In this document: piece after piece, positions 3,561-36,708 of the stretch
Layout of the letters: each line of letters starts with the position of its first letter
Numbering within the stretch: position 1 is the first letter of the stretch
Origin: a virus
Virus record (IMG/VR): IMGVR_UViG_3300028045_000006
Location: 1-36,708 of that record
Direction: 5' to 3' (one strand)
Length of the DNA: 36,708 nt
The notes under the pieces: generated by a model
Told to the model about the DNA's origin: nothing
Database searches by the model: none
What the model saw: the letters and a program-made list of their open reading frames with translations, nothing else
Program-made: the position numbers and the translations under genes

Positions 3561-5192
3561 CTAATCAGAATTAAGATCACTTTCTGTTAATCCTTGAAGC
3601 ATCAGGTAATCTCCAAATGTTTTTACTGGCTTGGCTGAATAAAATTCTAGGGCATTGCCAACTCTGTACAACGTTCTTCCTCCTATTGTTTTAATGGGCG
3701 TAGTTGCCATATCCCAAGCGCCAGACCAGAATGTTCCAAATCCTCCTTTGAATCTTCCTCCAGTTCTAGCCTTTACGCCTATTCCTTCTAATTGCTTAAG
3801 ATTAGCATAATCTCTATATTGAGCCTTTATGTTTGGATCTTTCAAAACTTCATAAATATCATTTCTTATCTCGTTAGCGAATTTATTTTTTACTTGTCTC
3901 CATCCACTTACTACATCTTTGCCTTTGAATATTTTCTGTGGTGTAAATTTATCTAATGAACTTTTTATACTTTGTGCATCTATGTAGGAAGCCGACGGGG
4001 TGTCTTTGTAATCTTCTTTTAAAACCTCTAATCCTTCTAGTAAATCAGCTCTTCTGGCAGGTTCTTTTTCTTTCATTATTTCCTTTTCTATCTTTTTGAA
4101 TTTAGAGGTGAAATCCATAGGTTTTTCTACAGACTTAAGTTCTGGTTCTATTTCCTTCTTCCATATTTCATTAGCCTGTTTCGCACTTTTAACGCCTATC
4201 CCTTTTTCTGTTCCGACTATGCCTTTTTTTAATGCCGATTCAGACGCGATATTAGGTTTTTCTTTAAGTATTCCAGCCTCATATTTTTGCATTAACTCAG
4301 CCTCTTTAGTACTAGGCTTGATTGCTGTCTCGTATAATTTCTCTCCAGCAGCTTTGATGCCTTGACCAACTGGTTCTACAACTGTTTCGGCAGCTTTTTT
4401 GCCTTTTTTTAATCCTAATCCCATAAGTCCAACGTCAACAGGAGCCATCCATTGAGCCTTGATGTCTTCATATTCTGGTGTGCCTTCAACGATACCAGCC
4501 TTTTCCAATCCATAATCAACTATATGACTATAAATTTCTCTAGGAACTGTTAATGGCAACCCGACCGTCCAAGCAGCAATCTCATTCCCGTAAGGCAAGT
4601 TGCTCAAAGTTCCACTAATCGGACTTAGAAGAGTTCCTATTGTTCCTTCTGCTATTTTCGACCAACCTGTGCCACTCTGCATAATCCCTTCTTCCGCATT
4701 TTCGTTTGTAGTTCCTTGATAAATGTCCTTAACGCCACTTCCTATAGTAGAAAGACCTTGTTTCGCTTGCCCAATAATATCTGGGCTTTCCTGGCTCATC
4801 ATCGTCTTTGCATCAGCTTCTGACAATCCTTTCGTTTCCATGATAAAATCAATCATCTGTTGTTTCTCTGGACTTGGTTTGGTCAGCGACTCTTGCGTAA
4901 TATCCATTACGGATTTCGTTACTTCTGGAGTGACTCCTGTTTGTGGAACATTTTGGATAGATTCCACTTGCGCTTGTTTTTCTTTCGCTGCATCTATTCC
5001 TGGTTGAAGCATTGGCATCAAAGAACTTGTGAAAGGAGCCTGCTCTTGCATATACGCCTTCTTGGTTTGTACCAAAGCAGCTTTAGCGTCTTCAAAGCTA
5101 GTTCCTTCAGCCTGCTTTGCCATCATAAAGTTATAATCTGACATGGACATATCGGCTGGTTTTTGCGGTTTTGTTTGTGTTGTAGGTATCAT
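3561..5192 (-). CDS. Large virion-associated protein (543 aa), possible internal or ejection protein
   Basis: Position next to the 917-aa CHAP protein at the distal end of the structural module. No diagnostic motif seen. Confidence 0.35.
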   Translation of the reverse strand: MIPTTQTKPQKPADMSMSDYNFMMAKQAEGTSFEDAKAALVQTKKAYMQEQAPFTSSLMPMLQPGIDAAKEKQAQVESIQNVPQTGVTPEVTKSVMDITQESLTKPSPEKQQMIDFIMETKGLSEADAKTMMSQESPDIIGQAKQGLSTIGSGVKDIYQGTTNENAEEGIMQSGTGWSKIAEGTIGTLLSPISGTLSNLPYGNEIAAWTVGLPLTVPREIYSHIVDYGLEKAGIVEGTPEYEDIKAQWMAPVDVGLMGLGLKKGKKAAETVVEPVGQGIKAAGEKLYETAIKPSTKEAELMQKYEAGILKEKPNIASESALKKGIVGTEKGIGVKSAKQANEIWKKEIEPELKSVEKPMDFTSKFKKIEKEIMKEKEPARRADLLEGLEVLKEDYKDTPSASYIDAQSIKSSLDKFTPQKIFKGKDVVSGWRQVKNKFANEIRNDIYEVLKDPNIKAQYRDYANLKQLEGIGVKARTGGRFKGGFGTFWSGAWDMATTPIKTIGGRTLYRVGNALEFYSAKPVKTFGDYLMLQGLTESDLNSD

Positions 5193-19985: not shown

Positions 19986-21152
19986 TTATTGTACGTTGTG
20001 TGTGATGTTCACAAGTCTGTAAGCGTCTCTGAAGAATACCGCATCACCGAATAGAACGTGAGTTAGGTAGTTCTTAGCGAGCTGTTTAGGTTCTTCACGG
20101 ATGTACAGTTCAGGCATCATTTGGATTGCCAAAGAGATTGCTCCTTGTCTTCCAGTTAGCATTGTCCCTGTTTCTGTAGCGAATACATTTGTGCCAGTTG
20201 TGAATGTCTCAGCTGGAGCCATCTTTCCGTAACAAGTCAAAGTACAGTCGTGTGTAGACCATGCACCTGCAGTAAGCTGTGCATTCTGATACTTACGTCG
20301 TCCTTCTGCGGCTAAATCGATATAATCGTTAGCTGAAGGTGGAGTCGTTCCGTTAATAGCTGTTAAGAAAATTGCCTTGAAGTCAGCCAAACCGTCACCG
20401 ATATTGATTTCACCTGCTGCCGCAGCAGTACCATCAGTTACACATGTCCAAGTTTCACCCAGAAGCGTGAATGTATCTGTGTTGCTAGGTTGTGTGTCAA
20501 CTGTCAACACTACACTTGTTGGTAGGTTGTTTGAAACATAACAGTTGAATCCAGCAGCTTTACCACGGAATTGGTTTCTTAGTTGTGTGTCTGCTTCTTG
20601 GAATCCGTTAGCTACGAATGTCTCTGTTAGGAGTGTAGCTGTGTGAGCATCGATTACAGCGAACAAAGGCGCATCAGTTGCGTTTTGTCTGTAAAGTTCT
20701 GCGTAAGATTCATTAAGTCTAGAAAGGACTGTTGAGGTAGTCAAAGAACCACCTGCAACCGTGTTGTTAGCACCTGCTACACCTGTAGCGAATACTGTTT
20801 GGTCGATGTTGTTTCTTAGTTGGAATGCTGATTGGTAAGCCAATTCTGCACCGTAGTCAGCCAAAGCTTGTTTCTCTTGTACTGGATCAAGGATGAAGTT
20901 AGCAATTTTAGATTGATCAACAGTCAAAGAACTCTGTACTGCTGAAAGATCGTCCATTGTAACGTCTGTACCTTGCGTGTAGTCTTGTACACGAACATCA
21001 CTTACATACGGAAAGTTTACTTGGTCTCCACTTGAAAGGTATGCTTCACATTTAGTGTTACATATCTCTTTCGCTACAAGCATCTTGTTCAGATAATCTT
21101 GTACCATAGGTTTCCATACCTCTGGATTTAAAGCTGTAATAGCGTTTGCCAT
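19986..21152 (-). CDS. Major capsid protein (HK97 fold, P22-coat-like family)
   Basis: 388 aa. The N-terminal A.T.LNPEVWKP.V..YL......A..I.N......SGD.V.FPY...V.V.DY pattern is typical of this capsid family. It follows the scaffold gene. Confidence 0.75.
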   Translation of the reverse strand: MANAITALNPEVWKPMVQDYLNKMLVAKEICNTKCEAYLSSGDQVNFPYVSDVRVQDYTQGTDVTMDDLSAVQSSLTVDQSKIANFILDPVQEKQALADYGAELAYQSAFQLRNNIDQTVFATGVAGANNTVAGGSLTTSTVLSRLNESYAELYRQNATDAPLFAVIDAHTATLLTETFVANGFQEADTQLRNQFRGKAAGFNCYVSNNLPTSVVLTVDTQPSNTDTFTLLGETWTCVTDGTAAAAGEINIGDGLADFKAIFLTAINGTTPPSANDYIDLAAEGRRKYQNAQLTAGAWSTHDCTLTCYGKMAPAETFTTGTNVFATETGTMLTGRQGAISLAIQMMPELYIREEPKQLAKNYLTHVLFGDAVFFRDAYRLVNITHNVQ

Positions 21153-24483: not shown

Positions 24484-25785
24484 CTATTTCTTAAGGATTA
24501 AGTCTTTAGCTGCTTTAGCGTATTCTTTGTATTCTTTGGCTGGAATTCCTATCTCGTGCTTTCTTATACCTGCTTCGTGGTCAGCAAAACCCATAGCTTT
24601 GTTCTCATAGTCACTGAACGGTGTTGAGTCTTTGACAGAGATTGTAGTCAATGCGTACCTAACTGCATCCATTGCATGATCGAAGCCTGGTTCTGGTACA
24701 TTTAACACCTTCCCATTCTTGTCTGTTAGCCACAAGTAGTTCCTATACTCTTTAATCACGTTAATTGACCTCTTAGTCATGAATATCCTTTGGTCTTGTA
24801 CTAACTGTATTCCTTGATTAACTGAGTCTCTACCTTTCTTACATCCGATTATGTTAGCTCCATAGGCTCTTATCTCATCAATAGACTTAGGCTCTGCTGA
24901 GTCAGCTACTGTTAGAGTGTTGTTCTCGTCGATCAATAGAATGTCAGCTATCTGCTTATTACTCAATCCTTTCCTAAATGTTATCTCGTCTATGATGTAA
25001 GCTCCGTTCCACTTGTAGATGTCTACTATAGATGTTGGGTCGTTACTGTATCCGAAATCCATACCTTTCCTAATCAACTTAGCTTCATCTGGTATCTTAT
25101 CAAGTATCTTCCAATCCTTATATATCTTACCTTCTACCTCACCCAGCATTCCTAGTCCATACACTTGCCACCATCCTTTCCTGTTCCTACGCTGTTCAAT
25201 TGATTCCACAATCTTCTCGTCTAATGCTTCGTTGTCCTTATAAGTAAGCGTACATTCTTCTACATCATCTCTATCATCTCTAACATCAGAGTAATACCAA
25301 AACTCATTAGTCGGATTCCAATCTAAGTACACAAACTCCTTAGTCCTTACCTCAAGCTGCTCAAATGCGTCAAAAGGCACGTTGTTAGCCTCGTTGATGA
25401 ACAAACGATCTCTACGTGCTCCTCTGAGCTTATCGGGGCTGTCAGCTGAAAAGAATTCGATTCTACTTCCTGTCTCAAATGTGTACGTGTGATTGGTCTT
25501 GTCCCATAGTTTGTCTTTGTAATAGCCTTGCTTCTGCATTATGTTTAAGAAATCTCTCTCAGCTCCTCTACGGAGATGTGGGAAAGACTCTGATACAACA
25601 CTTGTTAAAGTTATAGCCTTATCACTCTGTGCTCTAGCTATTAAATAAATAAGAATAGAGATTGTTTTAGAAGCTGAAGTACCACCAGGCACTGCTCTAA
25701 TCCTTTGCTCCATCTTCATTATCTTGTCCGTCGCTGTTGTTATTACAAACATGAGGTAGTATTGGTGATGGTAACTTCTCTCCAT
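24484..25785 (-). CDS. terL: Terminase large subunit (Terminase_3 / PBSX-like); true start probably at internal Met 25752, 25719 or 25713
   Basis: Walker A VPGGTSASKT and Walker B DRLFINEA. Nuclease motifs GMDFGYSNDPTSIV, DSAEPKSIDEIR and HAMDAVRYAL. Confidence 0.9.
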   Translation of the reverse strand: MERSYHHQYYLMFVITTATDKIMKMEQRIRAVPGGTSASKTISILIYLIARAQSDKAITLTSVVSESFPHLRRGAERDFLNIMQKQGYYKDKLWDKTNHTYTFETGSRIEFFSADSPDKLRGARRDRLFINEANNVPFDAFEQLEVRTKEFVYLDWNPTNEFWYYSDVRDDRDDVEECTLTYKDNEALDEKIVESIEQRRNRKGWWQVYGLGMLGEVEGKIYKDWKILDKIPDEAKLIRKGMDFGYSNDPTSIVDIYKWNGAYIIDEITFRKGLSNKQIADILLIDENNTLTVADSAEPKSIDEIRAYGANIIGCKKGRDSVNQGIQLVQDQRIFMTKRSINVIKEYRNYLWLTDKNGKVLNVPEPGFDHAMDAVRYALTTISVKDSTPFSDYENKAMGFADHEAGIRKHEIGIPAKEYKEYAKAAKDLILKK

Positions 25786-27971: not shown

Positions 27972-28163
27972 TTAAGAATTTAGTGGAATTTGTTTAGTTT
28001 GCTTGTTTGTCACGAATCCGTTTGTCGCTCCGTCCTGCTTCATCGCTTTGTATATAAGTTCGTCTAACGCTGTTTGCGCCTCCTGTGCTTCCTGTACTGT
28101 GAGTGGCTTGGTCTTTTTTAGGCTCGACTCCCCACCCACTATTAAAGTGAATACTGTTGTCAT
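27972..28163 (-). CDS. Hypothetical protein (63 aa)
   Basis: ORF track. Preferred over the overlapping alternative frame 27994..28227 because it starts 12 nt after the upstream stop. Confidence 0.4.
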   Translation of the reverse strand: MTTVFTLIVGGESSLKKTKPLTVQEAQEAQTALDELIYKAMKQDGATNGFVTNKQTKQIPLNS

Positions 28164-28174
28164 TGAAAAATTCT

Positions 28175-28426
28175 TTAAAGTTGTTGTAAACTCTGTCGCT
28201 CATGTTTTGTTTTTTTATACTTCTCATAAGACCTCATATCTCCTTCCATTCTCTCGGGGCTAATATTAGTAAGCTCGTGCTTTGCGTCCCTACTGTCTAC
28301 TGCTTTTAAATATGATTCAGGATTATAAACCTTGCAACCTTCATCACACATCTCCTGCCAAAATTCAAAAAGCCTTACGCTGTCCGTAGACTCCCTGACT
28401 CCAAATTTATCTATAAGGTAGTACAT
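28175..28426 (-). CDS. Hypothetical protein (83 aa), first gene of the leftward arm
   Basis: ORF track. Confidence 0.55.
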   Translation of the reverse strand: MYYLIDKFGVRESTDSVRLFEFWQEMCDEGCKVYNPESYLKAVDSRDAKHELTNISPERMEGDMRSYEKYKKTKHERQSLQQL

Positions 28427-28447
28427 TTTAGTTTAGTTAGAGCTGTC

Positions 28448-28484
28448 GTGGTGAAGTTTCCCTCACCACTTCAACTTTCCCTCA
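28448..28484 (-). promoter_or_regulatory. Leader element of the leftward arm: two mutually exclusive hairpins and a TTTCCCTCA direct repeat
   Basis: GTGGTGA (28448..28454) pairs with TCACCAC (28463..28469). TGAAGT (28452..28457) pairs with ACTTCA (28468..28473). TTTCCCTCA occurs at 28457..28465 and 28476..28484. Confidence 0.35.
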
Positions 28485-28614
28485 TCCTATGAAAACTTAA
28501 ATCGTAATGATAAAAGCAAAACCATTATTACACACTTTAACCAAGAAATCAATAGAACTTGGGAACAGAAAGCCACCTGTCAACATTAGTTAGTAATTAA
28601 GTATTGAATAAGTA

Positions 28615-28643
28615 TTGACACTATATAGCACATTTGCTATACT
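28615..28643 (+). promoter_or_regulatory. Candidate early rightward promoter TTGACA-N17-TATACT
   Basis: Consensus -35 at 28615..28620, 17-nt spacer, TATACT at 28638..28643. The first rightward ATG is at 28674. The -35 overlaps a tandem AAGTATTGA repeat (28599..28607 and 28610..28618, 11-bp period). Confidence 0.6.
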
Positions 28644-28673
28644 AAGTGTGTAGTATTCATTAACCCTCAAAAT

Positions 28674-28838
28674 ATGAAAACCTACGATCCTGCTGAAGTT
28701 CTAATGACACACTTCGGCTACAGTAAGGAAGAGCTTGAACTTCTAATTGTTTCAGGCAAAAGTCTTGGTGAAGAGATTGACGAGTGTCAGTCTTGGGACG
28801 AAGCGTGTATAGAAAAGGAACTAACCCTATGCTCATGA
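28674..28838 (+). CDS. Small ORF (54 aa), first rightward gene
   Basis: Hand translation: MKTYDPAEVLMTHFGYSKEELELLIVSGKSLGEEIDECQSWDEACIEKELTLCS. ATGA overlap with the next ORF. Confidence 0.5.
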   Translation: MKTYDPAEVLMTHFGYSKEELELLIVSGKSLGEEIDECQSWDEACIEKELTLCS

Positions 28839-28903
28839 AAGACTATTTAATTCTAATTGTTTTACTTTTATTTTTATTCGCTATAATCAAAACCTATGCT
28901 TAA
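28835..28903 (+). CDS. Micro-ORF (22 aa), single hydrophobic helix
   Basis: MKDYLILIVLLLFLFAIIKTYA; translationally coupled on both sides. Confidence 0.35.
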   Translation: MKDYLILIVLLLFLFAIIKTYA

Positions 28904-28997
28904 AGATTCTTTAATTCTCCAAGTCCTCCTAATGTCTGCTGTTATATTCGTAGGAGGATTCGTAGCTGTTATATTTCTATTAACCTTCCCACTATGA
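28896..28997 (+). CDS. Micro-ORF (33 aa), single hydrophobic helix
   Basis: MLKDSLILQVLLMSAVIFVGGFVAVIFLLTFPL; ATGA overlap with the next ORF. Confidence 0.35.
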   Translation: MLKDSLILQVLLMSAVIFVGGFVAVIFLLTFPL

Positions 28998-29125
28998 ACA
29001 GAGAACAACTACAACTACTTAAAAAAATTGCTGAAAAAGCCAAGAAACTAGAAGAAGCCTGTGAAGATAACGCTGAAGCTTTGAGAGAAACTAGAAACGC
29101 ATTAGAATCCTTAAAACACTTATAA
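28994..29125 (+). CDS. Small helical ORF (43 aa)
   Basis: MNREQLQLLKKIAEKAKKLEEACEDNAEALRETRNALESLKHL. Confidence 0.4.
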   Translation: MNREQLQLLKKIAEKAKKLEEACEDNAEALRETRNALESLKHL

Positions 29126-29127
29126 AA

Positions 29128-29403
29128 ATGACAACCCCAATAGAGCTATTAAAGGAATCCATAGAAATTACAAAAAAAGCCAACAAGTTTGAAGAGAGTT
29201 TGGTTGACTCTGGAAACTTACATTCCATTCGGGAACTTGACCTTTCCGACAGGACCGACTGGCTTCTAAGTAGTCTTAATATTTGTAGCGTGGAGAAATT
29301 GTTGTTAATGAAAGATTATGAATTGGCGAACCTGCCAGGAATAGGAAGGAAGACCCTTGAAGAGATTGAAAGCGCCCTTCATCACCACAAATTATTTAAC
29401 TAA
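29128..29403 (+). CDS. RNA polymerase alpha-subunit C-terminal-domain (alpha-CTD)-like helix-hairpin-helix protein
   Basis: SIRELDLSDRTDWLLSSLNICSVEKLLLMKDYELANLPGIGRKTLEEIESAL follows the alpha-CTD pattern I.EL.LS.R..N.L....I.....L.....EL....N.G.KSL.EI...L. Confidence 0.6.
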   Translation: MTTPIELLKESIEITKKANKFEESLVDSGNLHSIRELDLSDRTDWLLSSLNICSVEKLLLMKDYELANLPGIGRKTLEEIESALHHHKLFN

Positions 29404-29409
29404 TAAGAA

Positions 29410-29619
29410 ATGAAAAGACGACACGCTAGATTCCTATATGCCTTGATGGACAAGATCTATGTCTCTAAGGTTGAAGGTAAGAACGACTTAGGAATGAAAA
29501 GACCTATTGCCGCCCACAAGATCAGACTCAAAGATATTAAAGAGATAGAGAAAGAACTTTGGGAACATATTAAAGACGACTTGCCTTTTTCAGACTTAGA
29601 TGATACATTAGACGCGTAA
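29410..29619 (+). CDS. Hypothetical protein (69 aa)
   Basis: ORF track. Confidence 0.5.
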   Translation: MKRRHARFLYALMDKIYVSKVEGKNDLGMKRPIAAHKIRLKDIKEIEKELWEHIKDDLPFSDLDDTLDA

Positions 29620-29648
29620 TTTATATACCTTCAACCACCTTACTACCT

Positions 29649-29804
29649 ATGTCTAAAACAACAAAAGAACAAATCATGGCCGCAGTTGTGAACGACTATT
29701 TCAACGACCTCGAGTTTATTGAGGCATTGAATAATTTAACCTACGGTAGAAAGGTTCAGTTGAAAGCTAACCTTAAAACCAACTATGAACCAAGGATGGA
29801 TTAA
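29649..29804 (+). CDS. Small ORF (51 aa)
   Basis: Hand translation: MSKTTKEQIMAAVVNDYFNDLEFIEALNNLTYGRKVQLKANLKTNYEPRMD. It fills the gap before the replication gene. Confidence 0.4.
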   Translation: MSKTTKEQIMAAVVNDYFNDLEFIEALNNLTYGRKVQLKANLKTNYEPRMD

Positions 29805-30531
29805 ACTACATAGGAAGATTACCGAATGGGAGTGGTACACAGAAACCAACACCTTCGCTGTTTTTATGCACCTTATCCTTACTTGTAACTTCAAACCAAC
29901 GAAGTGGAGAGGCATTGAATTACAGCCAGGTGAAACCGTTAAAGCCATAACAACGCTAGCTGAAGAAACTAACTTGTCAGTGCAAACGATTCGCACAGCG
30001 ATTAAAAGGCTAAAATCAACACGGGAACTAACACAAAGACAACACGGAAAACACCGCATCCTTAAGCTAAAAAGCTACGATGCCTATCAACTTGCTAACA
30101 CGGACTCTAACAATGAACTAACATCGAAACAACATCGTTTTAACATCGAATCAACACTAGATAAAGAATGTAAAGAAAGAAAGAATGAAAAGAATGAAAA
30201 GAAATACACGTCGGATTCTGACGAATACCGACTAGCTGCATTACTAATAGGAAAAATAATAGAGAATAATCCAACACACAAATTTACTTCCTTATCAGAA
30301 AAAGACCTAGAAACCCAAACACATAAATATTCCGCGGAGGTTGACAGAATGATAAGATTAGATTCTCGCACTCCAGGTCAGATAGAGTTTCTAATAGATT
30401 GGTGTCAGCAGGACGACTTCTGGCAAGGCAATATACTGTCTATGAAGAAGCTTAGACAAAAGTTTGATACCTTGGTAGCACAATGTAAGCGTAAGGCAGG
30501 AGGTGGGAACACAACAGCAATTATTTCTTAA
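29785..30531 (+). CDS. Replisome organiser / replication initiator (N-terminal wHTH, DnaD-like C-terminal domain)
   Basis: The N-terminal WIKLHRKITEWEWY...LAEETNLSVQTIRTAIKRL is typical of phage replisome organisers. The C-terminal IEFLIDWCQQDDFWQGNILSMKKLRQKFDTL is typical of the DnaD/phage C-terminal domain. Confidence 0.65.
   Translation: MNQGWIKLHRKITEWEWYTETNTFAVFMHLILTCNFKPTKWRGIELQPGETVKAITTLAEETNLSVQTIRTAIKRLKSTRELTQRQHGKHRILKLKSYDAYQLANTDSNNELTSKQHRFNIESTLDKECKERKNEKNEKKYTSDSDEYRLAALLIGKIIENNPTHKFTSLSEKDLETQTHKYSAEVDRMIRLDSRTPGQIEFLIDWCQQDDFWQGNILSMKKLRQKFDTLVAQCKRKAGGGNTTAIIS
30120..30205. repeat. Candidate replication origin: in-phase AACATCG iterons plus an A-rich tract inside the organiser gene
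   Basis: AACATCG at 30120, 30131 and 30142, with degenerate AACACT at 30153 (exact 11-bp period). It is followed by ataaagaatgtaaagaaagaaagaatgaaaagaatgaaaagaaa, which includes a tandem AAGAATGAA x2 at 30181..30198. Confidence 0.5.
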
Positions 30532-30541
30532 ATATAAAGAT

Positions 30542-31048
30542 ATGCAAAAATATGTAATGACCACGACAGATAAAACCAAGTTTATTTTGAGTGAAGAAGA
30601 GAAGGAGGCTGTATTCAAAGCGGTTCTCAATGGGAAACAAAAACAAATAGTAGTGCAAGGTCAGATGATTCCTATAAACATCGCACCGACAATAATAACC
30701 ATGGAACGTTGGTGGTCGCAAGAAAACGAAAGACTAGCACTCACACACCACCGGCTTTGTAAGAACTGCTTAAGTATCATGCACATACAGGACAAGTGTC
30801 CTTGTTGGAAAACAATGGGTAAAGGAGAACTTAAAAGTGGAATAGAAGCGCCACTACTACCACAAGGAGTTGCAGACACGATCCAACAACTAGCAGATAA
30901 AAAAGCCTTTCCTCAGCTAGATAGGTTCGACCGGGCAAAGCTTGAAGACGAAGAAAAACAGGCCAGGTTGGCGAATGCCAACAGAGCCATCTCTACCCAA
31001 GAAGGAGCTTACATTGATCCAGAAACAGGAGAAACATTTTATTCTTAA
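30542..31048 (+). CDS. Hypothetical protein (168 aa from ATG 30542; the longest ORF starts at 30503)
   Basis: ORF track. The 30503 start would overlap the organiser gene by 29 nt, whereas 30542 follows its stop. Contains CKNC...CPC. Confidence 0.5.
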   Translation: MQKYVMTTTDKTKFILSEEEKEAVFKAVLNGKQKQIVVQGQMIPINIAPTIITMERWWSQENERLALTHHRLCKNCLSIMHIQDKCPCWKTMGKGELKSGIEAPLLPQGVADTIQQLADKKAFPQLDRFDRAKLEDEEKQARLANANRAISTQEGAYIDPETGETFYS

Positions 31049-31060
31049 CCCAAACCCCCT

Positions 31061-31498
31061 ATGAAATTCACCTACGATTGCGAATGTTGCGGACACAAAC
31101 TGGTCGCATACACTCACAAGCTAAACAAGATGATGGTATCGTCGCTAGAACAGCTTGTAGAGTTTTACGATCAAAACCACAGGAGGGCTAATCTACAAAA
31201 AGATTTACACCTCACGAAGAACCAATACGCTAACTTCCAAAAGCTACAATACTTTGAACTTGTACATAGAGATTCAAACGGTTGGCTACCTACTCAAAAA
31301 GGATCAGACTTTATAGCTGGCAAGGTGTGGGTTCCAAACACAGTAGGAACTCTCGGCAAGAAGATTCTAGAACCAGACCATCCAGCTTGGGAAACTCACC
31401 AGAGAAGAATCGACTGGGTAAAGGTTGGAGACTATATTCCAACAACCTACAAACAGAGAGAAGAATACCAAGATGAGAAATCTTTAACTTTATTTTAA
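31061..31498 (+). CDS. Hypothetical zinc-ribbon plus putative winged-helix protein (145 aa)
   Basis: N-terminal CECCGH, then QKLQYFELVHRDSNGWLPTQKGSDFIAGK, which resembles a wHTH recognition region. Confidence 0.4.
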   Translation: MKFTYDCECCGHKLVAYTHKLNKMMVSSLEQLVEFYDQNHRRANLQKDLHLTKNQYANFQKLQYFELVHRDSNGWLPTQKGSDFIAGKVWVPNTVGTLGKKILEPDHPAWETHQRRIDWVKVGDYIPTTYKQREEYQDEKSLTLF

Positions 31499-31508
31499 CC
31501 TAAACACT

Positions 31509-31715
31509 ATGAGTCAACCAAACATTACAGCAGAAAGAATGGAAGCTACCTACAAAGCTATATGCTGGGAATGTAGCGAAGAATTCTTTGAAGGAAATGT
31601 AAAAGAAATTGAAGAATGGGCAAAGAAAAACGATCATGACCTTAACTGGGACGAAATGGAAGAAGGCTTCGCAAGCGTCCACTGTTACGACTGTTCTTAT
31701 ATTTACCACTTATAA
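31509..31715 (+). CDS. Small zinc-ribbon protein (68 aa)
   Basis: CWEC...CYDC. Confidence 0.5.
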   Translation: MSQPNITAERMEATYKAICWECSEEFFEGNVKEIEEWAKKNDHDLNWDEMEEGFASVHCYDCSYIYHL

Positions 31716-31724
31716 TCCAACCAA

Positions 31725-31931
31725 ATGAAATACTACCAGCTCGATACGGACAAGCTAATGGCAGAGGAGAGCCTAGACTCAAGCGCAATTGTTTCCTGCT
31801 TTAAACAGCTGTACAATTCGGTTAGAGCAATTTTCTATTTAATCAAAGTTATGCAAATAGAAATTGACGAAGGGCGTTATGACAGGATTTCAGAAGATGG
31901 CAAAAAGTTTTTTAAAGAATCACATAAATAA
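31725..31931 (+). CDS. Hypothetical protein (68 aa)
   Basis: ORF track. Confidence 0.5.
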   Translation: MKYYQLDTDKLMAEESLDSSAIVSCFKQLYNSVRAIFYLIKVMQIEIDEGRYDRISEDGKKFFKESHK

Positions 31932-31932
31932 C

Positions 31933-32637
31933 ATGAAACACCTAAAAGAAATTAAAAACTACATATACGATTCTCAAACAACTTTCTTTGGAGAAGGAAA
32001 CGTGGTTGGGTTTGGTGACGACAGTTTCTATCTAAAGGAACTGGACAAAAATGAAGCAAATAGAATCATTAGAGAAAATCACTATTCTAAAAAGATCTAC
32101 AACGGAAGTTATATACATCTTGGGGTTTGGATGAACGGGGACCTAGTAGGGGCGTTACAGTATGGGTACGCAATGAATCCAGCCAGCCAAAACGGTGTTG
32201 TGTCCGACACCAAAATTGATGAATACCTTGAGCTAAACAGGATGTGGTTAGACGACATAGCCCCAAAGAACAGCGAAAGCAAGGCTATTAGTTATAGTAT
32301 AAAATATATAAAACGGAAATATCCAAAAATAAAATGGATTCAGAGTTTCGCAGACGAAAGGTGTGAGTGTTTTGGCGTGGTATATCAAGCGTGTAGCTTT
32401 GATTACTACGGAGAACACACAAGTAGCTTCTGGGAATTAGATGGTGAAACATTCCACAACTCAATAAAAACAAGCGAGAAAGCAGGACCGAGGGGGTATA
32501 AACTACTGAACGATCCTAAAAACAAAGACAGGGTTATAAAACACAAATTAAGACAATTCCGATACATAAAGTTTTTAGACAGAAGGTGTAGAAAGAAATG
32601 CCTACTAAAAAAACAACAATATCCCAAACGGAGCTAA
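31933..32637 (+). CDS. Mom-like GNAT-fold protein (candidate DNA base-modification enzyme), 234 aa from ATG 31933
   Basis: EANRIIRENHYSKK...HLGVWMNGDLVGALQYG...ELNRMW...WIQSFADERCECFGVVYQACSFDYYGE...FRYIKFL...YPK parallels the conserved blocks I recall for the Mom family (HHY.., G....L.GV..FG, ELNRL, SYAD...GH.G.IYQA.N..Y.G, HRY.YFL). Confidence 0.55.
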   Translation: MKHLKEIKNYIYDSQTTFFGEGNVVGFGDDSFYLKELDKNEANRIIRENHYSKKIYNGSYIHLGVWMNGDLVGALQYGYAMNPASQNGVVSDTKIDEYLELNRMWLDDIAPKNSESKAISYSIKYIKRKYPKIKWIQSFADERCECFGVVYQACSFDYYGEHTSSFWELDGETFHNSIKTSEKAGPRGYKLLNDPKNKDRVIKHKLRQFRYIKFLDRRCRKKCLLKKQQYPKRS

Positions 32638-32644
32638 TTTCCTA

Positions 32645-32673
32645 TTGCATTTATATAGCACCTGTGCTAGATT
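32645..32673 (+). promoter_or_regulatory. Candidate promoter TTGCAT-N17-TAGATT with a spacer nearly identical to that of the 28615 promoter
   Basis: Spacers ttaTATAGCACctgtgc and ctaTATAGCACatttgc match at 14 of 17 positions. It lies in the 60-nt gap after the Mom-like gene. Confidence 0.5.
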
Positions 32674-32697
32674 TAAACCAATCAATAACCAATCAAT

Positions 32698-32859
32698 ATG
32701 ACAATAGTAGGATTCGCAAGATACAAAAGCAAAGAACAAAGAGCAAGACTTCACCAGACCGTTAAAGACAAGAAGTGGAAGAACACCAATCAGATGATGT
32801 TAGAAATGGCTGATGTGCCAGAACTTGTACCAAAGAAGCCACTCAAAACTATCAATTAA
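32698..32859 (+). CDS. Small basic ORF (53 aa)
   Basis: Hand translation: MTIVGFARYKSKEQRARLHQTVKDKKWKNTNQMMLEMADVPELVPKKPLKTIN. Confidence 0.4.
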   Translation: MTIVGFARYKSKEQRARLHQTVKDKKWKNTNQMMLEMADVPELVPKKPLKTIN

Positions 32860-32870
32860 CCCATATCAAA

Positions 32871-33041
32871 ATGGAAGACCTGTTTGAAGACTTTCTCAAA
32901 GACAAACACGCCAAAGACTATCACGGAACAGATGATGACATGTATGAAGATTTTGAAGCGTGGCTTATGAACTTAGACGTTCAGGAGCTACTAGACTACG
33001 GAAACGAACTTGCAAAGAAATTAACTAACCCAACTAAGTAA
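32871..33041 (+). CDS. Small acidic ORF (56 aa)
   Basis: Hand translation: MEDLFEDFLKDKHAKDYHGTDDDMYEDFEAWLMNLDVQELLDYGNELAKKLTNPTK. TAATG overlap with erf. Confidence 0.45.
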   Translation: MEDLFEDFLKDKHAKDYHGTDDDMYEDFEAWLMNLDVQELLDYGNELAKKLTNPTK

Positions 33042-33532
33042 TGCAAAAATTATTCAACCTACAGAACAAACTAAAAGCAGTTAAGAAAGACGCTGAGAAT
33101 CCTTTCTTCAAGTCAAAGTATTTCGACATAAACGGATTACTCTCGGCTCTTAAGCCACTCTTGAACGAAGAAGGACTTGTAGTGATCCAACCACTAACTA
33201 CTTTAGAAGGAGGTGTAAATGCTCTTAAAACGGTCGTTATAGACGCTGAAACAGGAAAAGCATTGGTTGAGTCGGTTGTAGCACTTCCGAGCAACGTAGA
33301 CCCACAGAAGATGGGATCAGCTATTACTTACTTCCGAAGGTATGCCTTGCAATCACTATTCCTACTAGAAGCTGAAGATGATGACGCAAACTCAGTGTCA
33401 GGCAAGCAACCACCAGAAGCTAAGAATTACAATCATGGAGGAACAGGCAAGTGCGAGAGTTGTGGAGCGAATATGAAGATGAGTGCAGCAGGTAAAATTT
33501 ACTGTTCAGCCCTATGCTGGAAGAAAGACTAA
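33041..33532 (+). CDS. erf: ERF-family single-strand annealing recombinase with a C-terminal zinc ribbon
   Basis: NPFFKSKYFDINGLLSALKP and MGSAITYFRRYALQSLF are the ERF hallmark blocks. The C-terminus carries CESCG...CSALC. Confidence 0.75.
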   Translation: MQKLFNLQNKLKAVKKDAENPFFKSKYFDINGLLSALKPLLNEEGLVVIQPLTTLEGGVNALKTVVIDAETGKALVESVVALPSNVDPQKMGSAITYFRRYALQSLFLLEAEDDDANSVSGKQPPEAKNYNHGGTGKCESCGANMKMSAAGKIYCSALCWKKD

Positions 33533-33533
33533 T

Positions 33534-33692
33534 ATGAAATACATAATACCAATCAAGGAATACGAACAAATAATTAACCGAGGTAAAGAAATAGCCTCTA
33601 GAAAACCAACCACACCTAAAGAGCAATACTATGCAGACAAACATATCAGACAGCTTTCATCCAACAAAAGCGATCCAGACGTTAAAAAATAA
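33534..33692 (+). CDS. Small ORF (52 aa from ATG 33534; the longest ORF starts at 33483)
   Basis: ORF track. The 33483 start lies inside erf, and 33534 follows the erf stop. Confidence 0.4.
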   Translation: MKYIIPIKEYEQIINRGKEIASRKPTTPKEQYYADKHIRQLSSNKSDPDVKK

Positions 33693-33999
33693 CGCCAATG
33701 GAATAATTAAACTTGGAAACGAGCTACACCGATTAAGAATTGGATTCATAACAGCTAAGGCAAGACTAATAGACGCAGAGAATCTGTCACGCAGACTAGC
33801 ACTAAGCGATCCAGACCTAAAGGTTTCACTCATAAGAGATGTAATCAAAGACGGATGCGCTGAAGAACAGAAGATTCACGACCTACTCCTAGAAGAAATC
33901 CGAGACTTAAAAGAGCAAATGGAAGTGTTAGTAGAAGTAAATAACTCGCTGAAGGCTTCACACCGAATCCTTGAGCTTGAAATAAAGAACCAACTTTAA
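33631..33999 (+). CDS. Hypothetical coiled-coil protein (122 aa)
   Basis: ORF track; start uncertain (62-nt overlap with the previous ORF). Confidence 0.45.
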   Translation: MQTNISDSFHPTKAIQTLKNNANGIIKLGNELHRLRIGFITAKARLIDAENLSRRLALSDPDLKVSLIRDVIKDGCAEEQKIHDLLLEEIRDLKEQMEVLVEVNNSLKASHRILELEIKNQL

Positions 34000-34009
34000 C
34001 CAAAAAAAC

Positions 34010-34174
34010 ATGGCAAAACAAACTGAACTAGAAGAGTTCGTCTCTCGAGCGCCTTGGCTTAGAGGCGATAGTCTACTCAAAAGAGCCTTCGCTATTTGGG
34101 GATACGCATTCCTGGCTGGCGTAATGGTCTGGGCTGGACTCATGTTGTTGTTCCTCGTTCTTGGTGCATTTTAA
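34010..34174 (+). CDS. Small membrane protein (54 aa, 1 to 2 TM)
   Basis: MAKQTELEEFVSRAPWLRGDSLLKRAFAIWGYAFLAGVMVWAGLMLLFLVLGAF. Confidence 0.45.
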   Translation: MAKQTELEEFVSRAPWLRGDSLLKRAFAIWGYAFLAGVMVWAGLMLLFLVLGAF

Positions 34175-34192
34175 TCCTTAACCCAAACAACT

Positions 34193-34273
34193 ATGTTTGA
34201 AACAATTGTAATCGCAACTCTAATCGGATACGGAGTTGCACTCGTTGTTCTCTACAAAGAGAACTTAAAGTAA
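34193..34273 (+). CDS. Micro-ORF (26 aa), single TM
   Basis: MFETIVIATLIGYGVALVVLYKENLK. Confidence 0.35.
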   Translation: MFETIVIATLIGYGVALVVLYKENLK

Positions 34274-34289
34274 CCTATAACCTCATTCT

Positions 34290-34397
34290 ATGGAAATTGT
34301 AATCACATTAGCAGTAGGTATCTGGCTCGGTACTTATCTGAAAAAACACTGGAACGACCCAAACAATGCTTTAAATATTAAAAACAAAAAACAATAA
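34290..34397 (+). CDS. Micro-ORF (35 aa), single TM plus basic tail
   Basis: MEIVITLAVGIWLGTYLKKHWNDPNNALNIKNKKQ. Confidence 0.35.
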   Translation: MEIVITLAVGIWLGTYLKKHWNDPNNALNIKNKKQ

Positions 34398-34412
34398 ATA
34401 ACAAAAACCCTC

Positions 34413-35153
34413 ATGAAATATCTAAGAAAAGAACTCGCAATCGTAATGATTGGCGCAATAGTCGGGATGTTCCTATACATCACGTTTGAACCAGTTTCAA
34501 AAGCAGACGCACTGCAAGCAATCTACAACACAACCCTGGAAGAATTTAACTATGTGAACGGAATCTACAAAGAAAAGGAAGCTGAGATACAAACATACGA
34601 AGCTCGCTTAGAATCACTCAAAAATGAGCTAGAATCGCTGTCTAAACTACTTGCAAACTTAAAAGCAGACGTAGACGCAGAAAAAGACGAACTCTTTTCT
34701 AAGGGCGAAATAACGCCAAAAACAACAGAGCTTGAAAGGTGGCAGTATGTAGCTGATTTAAGAGAACCTTTGGCTAAGTATTGGAAAGGTACTGTTTTGG
34801 AAGGAAAGGAAGACGATCTTCTGTTGTGGTGCAAAGCTAGTACAGTTGCCAGAGTTTGCGTGAAGGTTATTGCAGCTCAGACGCAGATTGAAACTTCGTT
34901 TGGCACTACTGGAGTTGGTAAGACGCACAAGAATCTAACTGGTATCAGAGATTCAGGAAAGTGGAGAACTTACGAACAGTATCATTACAGCTTAAAGGAT
35001 AGTGTTGAACTGTTTATAGCTGGAAACTATCAAGATTACTTCACAATACATGGTTGGGAAAAAGGGCTTAGGTTATATTTAAACAGATGGGGGACACTAC
35101 ATGTAATTGATATAAAACATATATGCGAAAATGTATTAACAAAACAACCATGA
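34413..35153 (+). CDS. Signal-anchored coiled-coil protein with a C-terminal GH73-like (glucosaminidase/FlgJ-type) domain
   Basis: N-terminal TM segment LAIVMIGAIVGMFLYITF. IAAQTQIETSFGTTG...KNLTGIRD...WRTYEQYHYSLKDSVELF parallels the GH73 blocks AQA.lESgwG, nNlFGik and f..Y.s...S..dy. The candidate catalytic Glu codon is at 34890..34892. Confidence 0.55.
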   Translation: MKYLRKELAIVMIGAIVGMFLYITFEPVSKADALQAIYNTTLEEFNYVNGIYKEKEAEIQTYEARLESLKNELESLSKLLANLKADVDAEKDELFSKGEITPKTTELERWQYVADLREPLAKYWKGTVLEGKEDDLLLWCKASTVARVCVKVIAAQTQIETSFGTTGVGKTHKNLTGIRDSGKWRTYEQYHYSLKDSVELFIAGNYQDYFTIHGWEKGLRLYLNRWGTLHVIDIKHICENVLTKQP

Positions 35154-35509
35154 GAGAATTAAAATTCAAAACTTGGGACAGAAAAGAAAAAGAAATGTAC
35201 CCAGCAGAAAGATTGGCTGACTGGACGCTGATAATAGAAGAAGAAAGGTACGACATCCTTCAATTCACAGGTCTACTAGATAAAAACGGCAAGGAAATAT
35301 ATGAAGGCGATGTAGTGAAAACTGTAATCAGAACCATCGATGGGCATGACCACAAGGAAAGCGGAGAGGTGAAGTGGAATTATAACGACCTGGCGTACGA
35401 CATAGTGAGGTCTAGAGAAAAAGGTGATTTCCAACACCTGTTCAAGTCATCAGGCCGCACTGTTGAAGTCATAGGTAACATATACGAGAATCCTGACCTG
35501 CTTAAATGA
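35150..35509 (+). CDS. YopX-family protein
   Basis: MRELKFKTWD...LQFTGLLDKNGKEIYEGDVV...VIGNIYENPDLL is the classic YopX pattern. ATGA overlap with the upstream gene. Confidence 0.75.
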   Translation: MRELKFKTWDRKEKEMYPAERLADWTLIIEEERYDILQFTGLLDKNGKEIYEGDVVKTVIRTIDGHDHKESGEVKWNYNDLAYDIVRSREKGDFQHLFKSSGRTVEVIGNIYENPDLLK

Positions 35510-35661
35510 AACCAACCAAATTCTTAACAATTTTTATTCTATGTCTATTCGTAATTTTATTCTTAATAGGTTTTCTAAAGTGGATAGTGATGGTGTTCGT
35601 AATTCCAGCCGTAGAATTCCTGTTCGCAGGATTAGTTCTAATAGCAAGTGGAAGCCTGTAG
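35506..35661 (+). CDS. Small membrane protein (51 aa, 2 TM)
   Basis: MKPTKFLTIFILCLFVILFLIGFLKWIVMVFVIPAVEFLFAGLVLIASGSL; ATGA overlap with yopX. Confidence 0.45.
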   Translation: MKPTKFLTIFILCLFVILFLIGFLKWIVMVFVIPAVEFLFAGLVLIASGSL

Positions 35662-35761
35662 TGGAGCTTCAAGTTTGCAATGACATCTTGGAAGGCACGC
35701 AGAAAATGAAAGTCATTCCGTATGAGAAGTCTTATAACGAATCTCGTAGCCATCAATCACT

Positions 35762-35917
35762 ATGAGAAGACCAGCACCAAAATACAAACAGATGAAAAAA
35801 GCAAAATCGTACAAAGATTATTTAAAAGAAGACCAAGAGAAAGGTAATCCAGCAGCAATAGAAGCTAAAATACCTAACAAGTATTATAAAAATAACGTAA
35901 GTAAATACGACCTATGA
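35762..35917 (+). CDS. Small basic ORF (51 aa)
   Basis: MRRPAPKYKQMKKAKSYKDYLKEDQEKGNPAAIEAKIPNKYYKNNVSKYDL. Confidence 0.4.
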   Translation: MRRPAPKYKQMKKAKSYKDYLKEDQEKGNPAAIEAKIPNKYYKNNVSKYDL

Positions 35918-36024
35918 AAATCACAATCGAATACAAACCAGTAAGCAACAAAGCAAGGGAAGAGTTTTTAGAAGACATAAGATTAGTAACAGACGATTAC
36001 GAAGCTGAAATGGAAATAGAATAA
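35914..36024 (+). CDS. Micro-ORF (36 aa)
   Basis: MKITIEYKPVSNKAREEFLEDIRLVTDDYEAEMEIE; ATGA overlap. Confidence 0.35.
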   Translation: MKITIEYKPVSNKAREEFLEDIRLVTDDYEAEMEIE

Positions 36025-36148
36025 TTTAACAACAACCCCATGACTAAAAACAAGGGAGAGAAAAAGAGCTTCCTGCATAATATATTTAATCAAAGAAGCC
36101 CTAAAGAATCATCTTAAGTAAACCCACTATCAATTAACAATAAATAAT

Positions 36149-36358
36149 ATGAAAGATAAAGGAGAAACTGAGTGCGAAGGTTGTGAAAACGCTATTGCCA
36201 CTTATAAATGTGTTGATTGCGGGAGAAAGCTTTGCGAAGATTGTGCTGAAGGTGGATATGCAGGATGCGATTGTGGTTTGCCACAGTTTGAGCTTATTAA
36301 CTCCCAACACCCCATGAATACAGAAAGGAAAGAAATTATAGAGGAAAGAGTTTCTTAA
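36149..36358 (+). CDS. Cys-rich B-box-like zinc-finger protein (69 aa)
   Basis: CEGCENAIATYKCVDCGRKLCEDCAEGGYAGCDCG has at least four CxxC or CxC pairs with B-box-like spacing. Confidence 0.5.
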   Translation: MKDKGETECEGCENAIATYKCVDCGRKLCEDCAEGGYAGCDCGLPQFELINSQHPMNTERKEIIEERVS

Positions 36359-36394
36359 TAACCTAAAAGAACTTAACTTATAACCTATGAAAAG

Positions 36395-36583
36395 ATGAAA
36401 ACAGAAAAAACAGGTTACGAAGTAAAACTAATAGTGTCGCTTATATTTAATTGTAAAAGCCTACAGGAGGCTGAAGGAGAACAAGAGAATCTTAAAAATG
36501 CACTCAAGAACCAACTTGACGAGCATTACCCATTTAGAGTTGAGAAAGTGGAAGTCCAACCACCCGAACTTAATCAAGAATAA
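36395..36583 (+). CDS. Hypothetical protein (62 aa)
   Basis: ORF track; TAATG overlap with the junction-spanning ORF. Confidence 0.5.
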   Translation: MKTEKTGYEVKLIVSLIFNCKSLQEAEGEQENLKNALKNQLDEHYPFRVEKVEVQPPELNQE

Positions 36584-36708
36584 TGGAAACACAAGAATTA
36601 AAACAATCAATAGAAGAAATGCGTCAAGAGGTCGTGATTAGTGATGTAACGGATAGGATTAGAATAATGTGTCTTGATGCTTTGGATAGTGCGGATGAGT
36701 GTTTGGAT
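36582..36708. repeat. Terminal direct repeat, copy B (identical to 1..127)
   Basis: Same 127-nt string as 1..127. It contains the 5' part of the ORF annotated at 2..205. Confidence 0.95.

Follow-up and report, generated by a model that had tools for sequence, protein, structure and literature searches.

A Mom-family gene, a candidate for DNA hypermodification, in the early operon of an uncultured phage

Introduction

Does the open reading frame (ORF) at positions 31933-32637 (+) of an uncultured phage genome encode an enzyme that hypermodifies phage DNA, and does an unusual sequence in one of its loops point to a chemistry or target unlike that of phage Mu Mom? Both questions were raised by an original prediction, made from the sequence alone, that described the product as a Mom-like GNAT protein with a candidate role in DNA hypermodification and anti-restriction. 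Reconstitution in vitro has settled how Mu Mom works (Silva et al., Nat Commun 2026; PMC13219725). Once DNA has been replicated, the enzyme moves glycine from charged tRNA(Gly) onto the N6 of adenine in the double strand, and an on-base rearrangement converts the glycyl-adenine into N6-carbamoylmethyl-adenine (6-NcmdA). This modification reaches 15-25% of adenines in Mu, in a loose SASNY context, and many restriction enzymes are blocked (PMC13219725). In this work, we examined the gene, its relatives, its predicted structure, and its surroundings in the whole stretch of DNA available, 36,708 nucleotides of an IMG/VR record (IMGVR_UViG_3300028045_000006), hereafter the window.

The open reading frame and its start codon

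The ORF at 31933-32637 (+) opens with an ATG at 31933, has a stop codon that ends at 32637, and encodes a protein of 234 aa; on the reverse strand of the same interval, many stop codons interrupt reading. The ORF and every sequence block quoted for it in the original prediction were confirmed in the translation, namely, ENHYSKK, GVWMNGDLVGALQYG, ELNRMW, SFADERCECFGVVYQACSFDYYGE, and FRYIKFL...YPK. In public assemblies, gene callers placed the start further upstream, at the ATG at 31879, for a product of 252 aa (P0001). We prefer the start at 31933 because close homologs are mostly about 230-240 aa long and have N-termini that align at about residues 2-8 of the 234-aa version, and because a start at 31879 would create an overlap with the preceding ORF.

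Family membership and homologs

The reading of this protein as Mom-like is borne out by profile, sequence, and fold comparisons. The Pfam Mom family (PF25680) matched it with an E-value of 9.8e-69 and 231.5 bits (curated cut-off: 27.1 bits) over profile positions 2-202 of 202, and PHROG 1384, "Mom-like DNA modification protein," matched with an E-value of 3.6e-57. A profile search against Mom models had been proposed with the original prediction, and both models matched. The crystal structure of phage Mu Mom (PDB 8bv8, "Methylcarbamoylase mom") was matched over residues 6-232 (E 1.9e-63). The similarity to Mom in these searches greatly exceeds what chance would produce. Full-length pairwise alignment gave 48% identity to Mu Mom. 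Searches of GenBank phages by tblastn returned the Mom proteins of Mu, D108, SfMu, and Mu-like phages of Yersinia and Pseudomonas at 46-51% identity, and more distant Mom proteins (33-37%) in phages of Aeromonas, Arthrobacter, Enterococcus, Lactococcus, and Porphyromonas. In NCBIfam, no model matched Mom or the neighboring genes. A scan of genome contigs for Mom found a single locus, a Pseudomonas prophage with 51% identity, which gave no clue to the host. There is strong support for reading the product of 31933-32637 as a GNAT-fold enzyme of the Mom family that is a candidate for hypermodifying phage DNA and countering restriction.

This family is very large. Among the candidates screened, 2,505 Mom homologs were found at E-values up to 1e-10, and at E-values up to 0.001 the family falls into 1,393 clusters (50% identity). 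The authors of the mechanism report over 8,000 Mom homologs in metaviromes, some of them proven active (PMC13219725), and exactly the protein studied here already carries the JGI label "adenine modification enzyme." The gene is clearly a relative of phage Mu Mom within a large, described family and no new kind of system; it is one more uncharacterized member of a family whose chemistry was solved in 2026. Its mildly unusual points are limited to a glycine-to-glutamate variant at position 145 and a regulatory setting unlike that of Mu, and its annotation is otherwise routine.

The nearest relatives form a marine-type clade of Mom proteins from uncultured viruses (IMG/VR, ENA, Logan, and Tara contigs; P0002-P0120). 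These share 65-75% identity with the 234-aa protein, a length of about 230 aa, the common loop pattern "SFADERC..FG.VYQA," and a location among phage early genes. They differ from it at position 145, which is glycine nearly throughout the clade and glutamate in the 234-aa protein.

Predicted structure

An AlphaFold2 model of the 234-aa protein, built from 54 sequences, has a mean pLDDT of 86.6 and a pTM of 0.81. Foldseek comparison of the model with PDB placed Mu Mom (8bv8_A) at the top (E 1.2e-28, TM 0.80/0.84, rmsd 2.7 Å over 216 columns, 49% identity). The next matches were ordinary GNAT acetyltransferases, with TM scores of 0.4-0.5, about 10% identity, and E-values of 1e-6 to 1e-4.

According to the model, the protein has a GNAT core that carries the Mom-specific helix-turn-helix (HTH)-like insertion. 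The counterpart of this insertion spans residues about 167-203 (32431-32541, +), which align to Mu residues about 175-209 with one 1-residue gap and one 3-residue gap, and the model places helices at 176-180 and 186-193 in this region. In Mu Mom, the insertion is proposed to bind DNA, and its deletion (about 175-209) abolishes activity (PMC13219725). The basic C-terminal tail of Mom is present as well in the alignment to Mu Mom. The likeness to Mu Mom (gp55; 8bv8; PF25680) thus extends over the GNAT core, the HTH-like insertion, and the basic tail. Mu Mom is likewise a single-gene system that needs no phage-encoded partner.

The GNAT fold, with the many acetyltransferases found by Foldseek, and an earlier report that Mu Mom binds acetyl-CoA (PMC7261163) would be compatible with a conventional acetyl-CoA-dependent acetyltransferase whose substrate is a protein or small molecule and not DNA. 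We regard this reading as hardly credible. Mom was the sole Pfam family to match the protein at E-values up to 1, with no acetyltransferase family found, and the structural resemblance to ordinary GNATs is far below the TM of 0.8 and 49% identity seen with Mom. Furthermore, the segment that links the strand at 98-106 to the helix at 114-129, residues 107-113 (DIAPKNS), lacks the Q/R-x-x-G-x-G/A motif of the pyrophosphate-binding loop that classical acetyl-CoA GNATs have between strand 4 and helix 3. Finally, Mom used Gly-tRNA(Gly) in the reconstitution (PMC13219725). The earlier work had found the same Mu Mom residues to be important, with numbering shifted by 10, and had put forward acetyl-CoA and iron (PMC7261163). 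The later reconstitution replaces this view, the acyl donor being Gly-tRNA(Gly) and not acetyl-CoA (PMC13219725).

Conservation of active-site residues

Mutational data for Mu Mom define the residues that matter for activity. R111, S124, and R151 are essential, with S124A catalytically dead; D149A greatly reduces activity; and H58A, Y59A, Y159A, W48A, and W181A reduce it drastically (PMC13219725). Seven of these positions are kept in the 234-aa protein. Mu H58-Y59 correspond to H50-Y51 (codons at 32080-32085, +), which the pairwise alignment identifies and which are invariant in 120/120 close and 93/98 diverse relatives. Alignment and conservation in relatives likewise identify R103 (32239-32241, +; Mu R111), S116 (32278-32280, +; Mu S124), and Y151 (32383-32385, +; Mu Y159), and alignment and close-relative conservation identify D141-E142-R143 (32353-32361, +; Mu D149-E150-R151). 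All seven Mu-equivalent residues, H50, Y51, R103, S116, D141, R143, and Y151, vary little or not at all among the 120 nearest relatives and 70 IMG/VR loci. Only some members of the wider family have arginine at position 143 (59 of the 98 diverse Mom representatives). R143 marks a Mu-like "SFADERC" subfamily, in which the 234-aa protein is placed.

The protein differs from Mu Mom at both of these tryptophans and at one loop glycine. In the pairwise alignment, Mu W48, at the dimer interface, is replaced by N40, and Mu W181 is replaced by T173; Mu G153 corresponds to E145. Tryptophan is rare in the W48 and W181 columns among both close and diverse relatives. Since neither residue is kept by the clade or across the wider family, these tryptophans are peculiarities of Mu and not family-defining features.

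The loop at residues 144-148 and the E145 variant

The original prediction had pointed to a loop that reads CECFG, which is indeed present at residues 144-148 (C144-E145-C146-F147-G148; 32362-32376, +; Mu C152-G-R-A-G156), with the E145 codon, GAG, at 32365-32367. However, the pattern GH.G that was taken as the usual one is not the family norm. The loop is CGRAG in Mu and CG[G/C]FG in the nearest clade, histidine occupies the second position in only 4 of 98 diverse representatives, and the last glycine alone is invariant among these representatives. The idea that the loop holds differing catalytic residues was not sustained, as the mutationally essential residues sit elsewhere and are all conserved. 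We therefore rejected CECFG as a changed catalytic motif. An assignment of residues 144-148 to the GNAT P-loop was also rejected, as the counterpart of Mu S124, S116, lies in the helix that follows the P-loop; residues 144-148 therefore belong to the loop after that one, which follows the D141-bearing strand.

What sets the protein apart from its clade is the glutamate itself. Glycine occupies position 145 in 115 of the 119 nearest relatives and in 69 of 70 IMG/VR loci. An ENA contig that carries the same E145-bearing sequence is identical over 4,143 bases, and thus E145 does not appear to be an assembly error within this record, although the two assemblies possibly derive from related samples. 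In other lineages of the same subfamily, and in other 50%-identity clusters of the family, the position is occupied by K, S, N, R, or E, which argues that a side chain is tolerated there.

The near-invariance of the glycine within the clade, and a dip in model confidence over residues 141-150 (pLDDT 77), could be taken to mean that the change to glutamate disturbs the active-site loop, leaving a weakened or inactive copy and phage DNA that is unmodified or poorly modified. We find this improbable, given that the ORF is intact and full length with each essential residue present, that the same sequence recurs in the independent ENA assembly, and that residues other than glycine, including glutamate, occur at this position in other clusters of the family.

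A second possibility is that the enzyme is active with an altered specificity, using another aminoacyl-tRNA donor or DNA sequence context and producing an adenine hypermodification or a modification pattern unlike that of Mu. The rare, acidic E145 lies two residues after the essential R143, in a loop by R143, D141, and Y151 and near the expected position of the acyl group. Furthermore, identity to Mu Mom is just 48%, the HTH-like insertion that is the proposed DNA reader is among the less conserved parts, and the authors of the mechanism hold that donor and substrate are not predictable from structure alone (PMC13219725). Against this, the catalytically important Mu residues are all kept, the variety of residues at position 145 in sister lineages is unlike what a specificity switch would show, and no accessory modification genes were recognized among the surrounding ORFs scanned. 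On balance, altered specificity seems unlikely. The more specific proposal, that E145 beside R143, D141, and Y151 in the acyl-donor pocket acts together with the divergent HTH-like insertion to change the aminoacyl-tRNA or DNA context, seems a long shot; if true, the phage would have an adenine hypermodification or a modification pattern so far undescribed. The expectation in the original prediction that chemistry or target could differ because of the loop is not indicated by these data, with the essential residues kept and position 145 variable in the family. The natural G145E variant may nonetheless offer a cheap probe of the importance of the loop next to Mu R151.

Proposed chemistry

Based on the family, the fold, the conservation of the essential residues, and the R143 subfamily, the gene is probably an active Mom-family member of the "SFADERC" subfamily with the chemistry of Mu Mom. 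By analogy, the enzyme would act on replicated double-stranded DNA, binding it and flipping target adenines out, and would then transfer the glycyl group of Gly-tRNA(Gly) to the adenine N6 amine. The resulting N6-glycyl-adenine would rearrange on the base to 6-NcmdA, and modification of a sizeable fraction of adenines would make the DNA resistant to many host restriction endonucleases. A search for a phage-encoded tRNA(Gly) donor found no tRNA genes and no Rfam matches in the phage, and the glycyl donor would thus be that of the host.

In taking its acyl group from an aminoacyl-tRNA on a GNAT scaffold, the Mom-family enzyme would resemble the tRNA-dependent aminoacyl-transferases FemX, L/F-transferase, and PacB. 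The acceptor in those enzymes is a peptide, protein, or lipid, whereas that of the Mom-family enzyme would be adenine in DNA. None of the three has significant sequence similarity to the 234-aa protein in the Pfam and PDB searches.

Phage genome and gene neighborhood

Bases 1-127 of the window are identical to bases 36582-36708. From these identical ends, the window probably represents an entire phage genome of about 36.6 kb, circular or terminally redundant and assembled end to end. A megablast search of positions 28000-36708 against GenBank phages found no match, which indicates that the phage backbone is not that of a known isolate. The structural genes are on the minus strand and include those for TerL (24484-25785) and the major head protein (19986-21152). 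Among 14 ORFs scanned in 2328-24004 (-), the major head protein alone had a solid PHROG match; three others had weak partial matches to peptidase, endolysin, and amidase families, and the remainder had none. The virion module is very divergent.

The plus-strand block from about 28.6 kb carries genes for a small RNA-polymerase-alpha-CTD-like protein and a DnaD-like helicase loader (29785-30531), four ORFs of unknown function, and mom. After mom come two small ORFs, the recombinase Erf (33041-33532), a glucosaminidase-like protein, and YopX. The ten ORFs from 28994 to 32637 (+) are separated by gaps of at most 29 bases, and the first larger gap is one of 60 bases after mom. The mom gene is ORF number ten in this closely packed early operon of the plus strand, to which the DnaD-like replisome organizer also belongs. 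The earlier description of mom as closing the replication block holds in that it ends this ten-ORF run with the DnaD-like loader, but Erf lies 400 bases further downstream. The phage is not a Mu-like transposable phage. In Mu, mom is located at the right end of the genome, whereas here it lies inside an early replication and recombination operon with the DnaD-like loader and Erf.

Related contigs also have mom amid early or replication genes (RusA, DnaB-like helicase). Synteny over 72 related mom loci showed that neighbors are not conserved, with only Erf recurring (3/72); these unconserved neighbors fit a mobile single-gene module. In two related phage contigs (L075, 5369-6064; L077, 6772-7578), mom is immediately upstream of a gene for an N6/N4 DNA methyltransferase (PF01555), which suggests stacked DNA-modification modules. 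In the window, no DNA methyltransferase gene adjoins mom.

Several small ORFs on the plus strand also deserve mention. The 91-aa product of 29128-29403 (+) matches the C-terminal domain of RNA polymerase alpha (PF03118; E 1.3e-9, 38 bits, cut-off 23.8) and could act on host transcription as a decoy or a modulator. Two others are rich in cysteine, one of 68 aa at 31509-31715 (+) with a CxxC...CxxC arrangement and one of 69 aa at 36149-36358 (+) with several CxxC pairs, and from their sequences both look like zinc-ribbon or zinc-finger proteins.

Regulation of mom and a repeated promoter-like element

The ORF directly upstream of mom (31725-31931, +; 68 aa), which had no family match in profile searches, ends with a TAA one base before the mom ATG. 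This spacing suggests that mom is translationally coupled to it. The Mu-type com-mom operon has a gene for the zinc-finger protein Com that overlaps the mom start, and an mRNA hairpin that occludes the start, whereas neither is found here. Neither of the two upstream 68-aa ORFs, at 31509-31715 and 31725-31931, resembles Mu Com (E 0.24 and 17, the BLASTP value of 17 being that of 31725-31931), and the predicted fold of 31880-31980 (-4.9 kcal/mol, z 0.48) leaves the start unpaired. Given the lack of both a Com homolog and a hairpin over the start codon, the control circuit of Mu is absent.

The best sigma-70-like promoter site in the region is at 28613-28643 (+; TTGACA-17-TATACT, 11/12). The early transcription unit of the plus strand, with which mom would be transcribed, probably starts at this site, and the scan found no terminator-like site on the plus strand between this site and mom.

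The original prediction had a promoter directly after mom. The 60-base gap that follows the gene gave no hit in a sigma-70 and terminator scan, the totals of which were not above those of shuffled sequences. However, the gap contains a promoter/operator-like element at 32643-32673 (+; TTGCAT-17-TAGATT), the hexamers of which fall under the sigma-70 scan threshold. In register, this element is identical to the site at 28613-28643 at 23 of 31 bases. It contains the perfect inverted repeat TAGCAC-NN-GTGCTA (32656-32669), which is common to both copies, and the exact 10-mer TATATAGCAC occurs in the window only in these two elements. A promoter after mom is therefore plausible, and the site is better termed a second copy of a putative promoter/operator element. 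The twin 31-base element may be bound by a regulator of the phage at two early promoters. About 20 bases beyond each copy lies a gene start of the form TAACC-N8-9-ATG.

Translation-start signals

Across the window, a Shine-Dalgarno-like motif was found at only one of 40 likely genes. TAACC was found at -12 to -17 of 14 of these 40 starts, compared with 0.84 expected from random coding-strand positions and a maximum of six in 2,000 draws. Examples include the starts at 28994, 31061, 31509, 32698, 32871, 33041, and 34010 on the plus strand and at 5192, 10011, 15946, 16756, and 24004 on the minus strand. In many cases, the TAA of the motif doubles as the stop codon of the gene before it. The mom gene itself is without the motif. 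The constant spacing between TAACC and the start suggests a signal for initiating or re-initiating translation in a host that makes no use of Shine-Dalgarno sites. No enrichment was seen for the Bacteroidota -7 motif, TAnnTTTG (45 found vs. 36.6 expected). Taken with the regulatory setting of mom, the locus would be a case of Mom-type adenine hypermodification used by non-Mu-like phages, apparently without Shine-Dalgarno sites and without the Com control circuit.

The same motif recurs in a 238-base gap (34175-34412, +) before the glucosaminidase-like gene, which contains ATG codons that each follow a TAACC-type motif. One of these, at 34291, opens a 35-aa ORF annotated by gene callers in identical contigs. 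From their position, the ORFs in this gap may encode small membrane or holin-like proteins.
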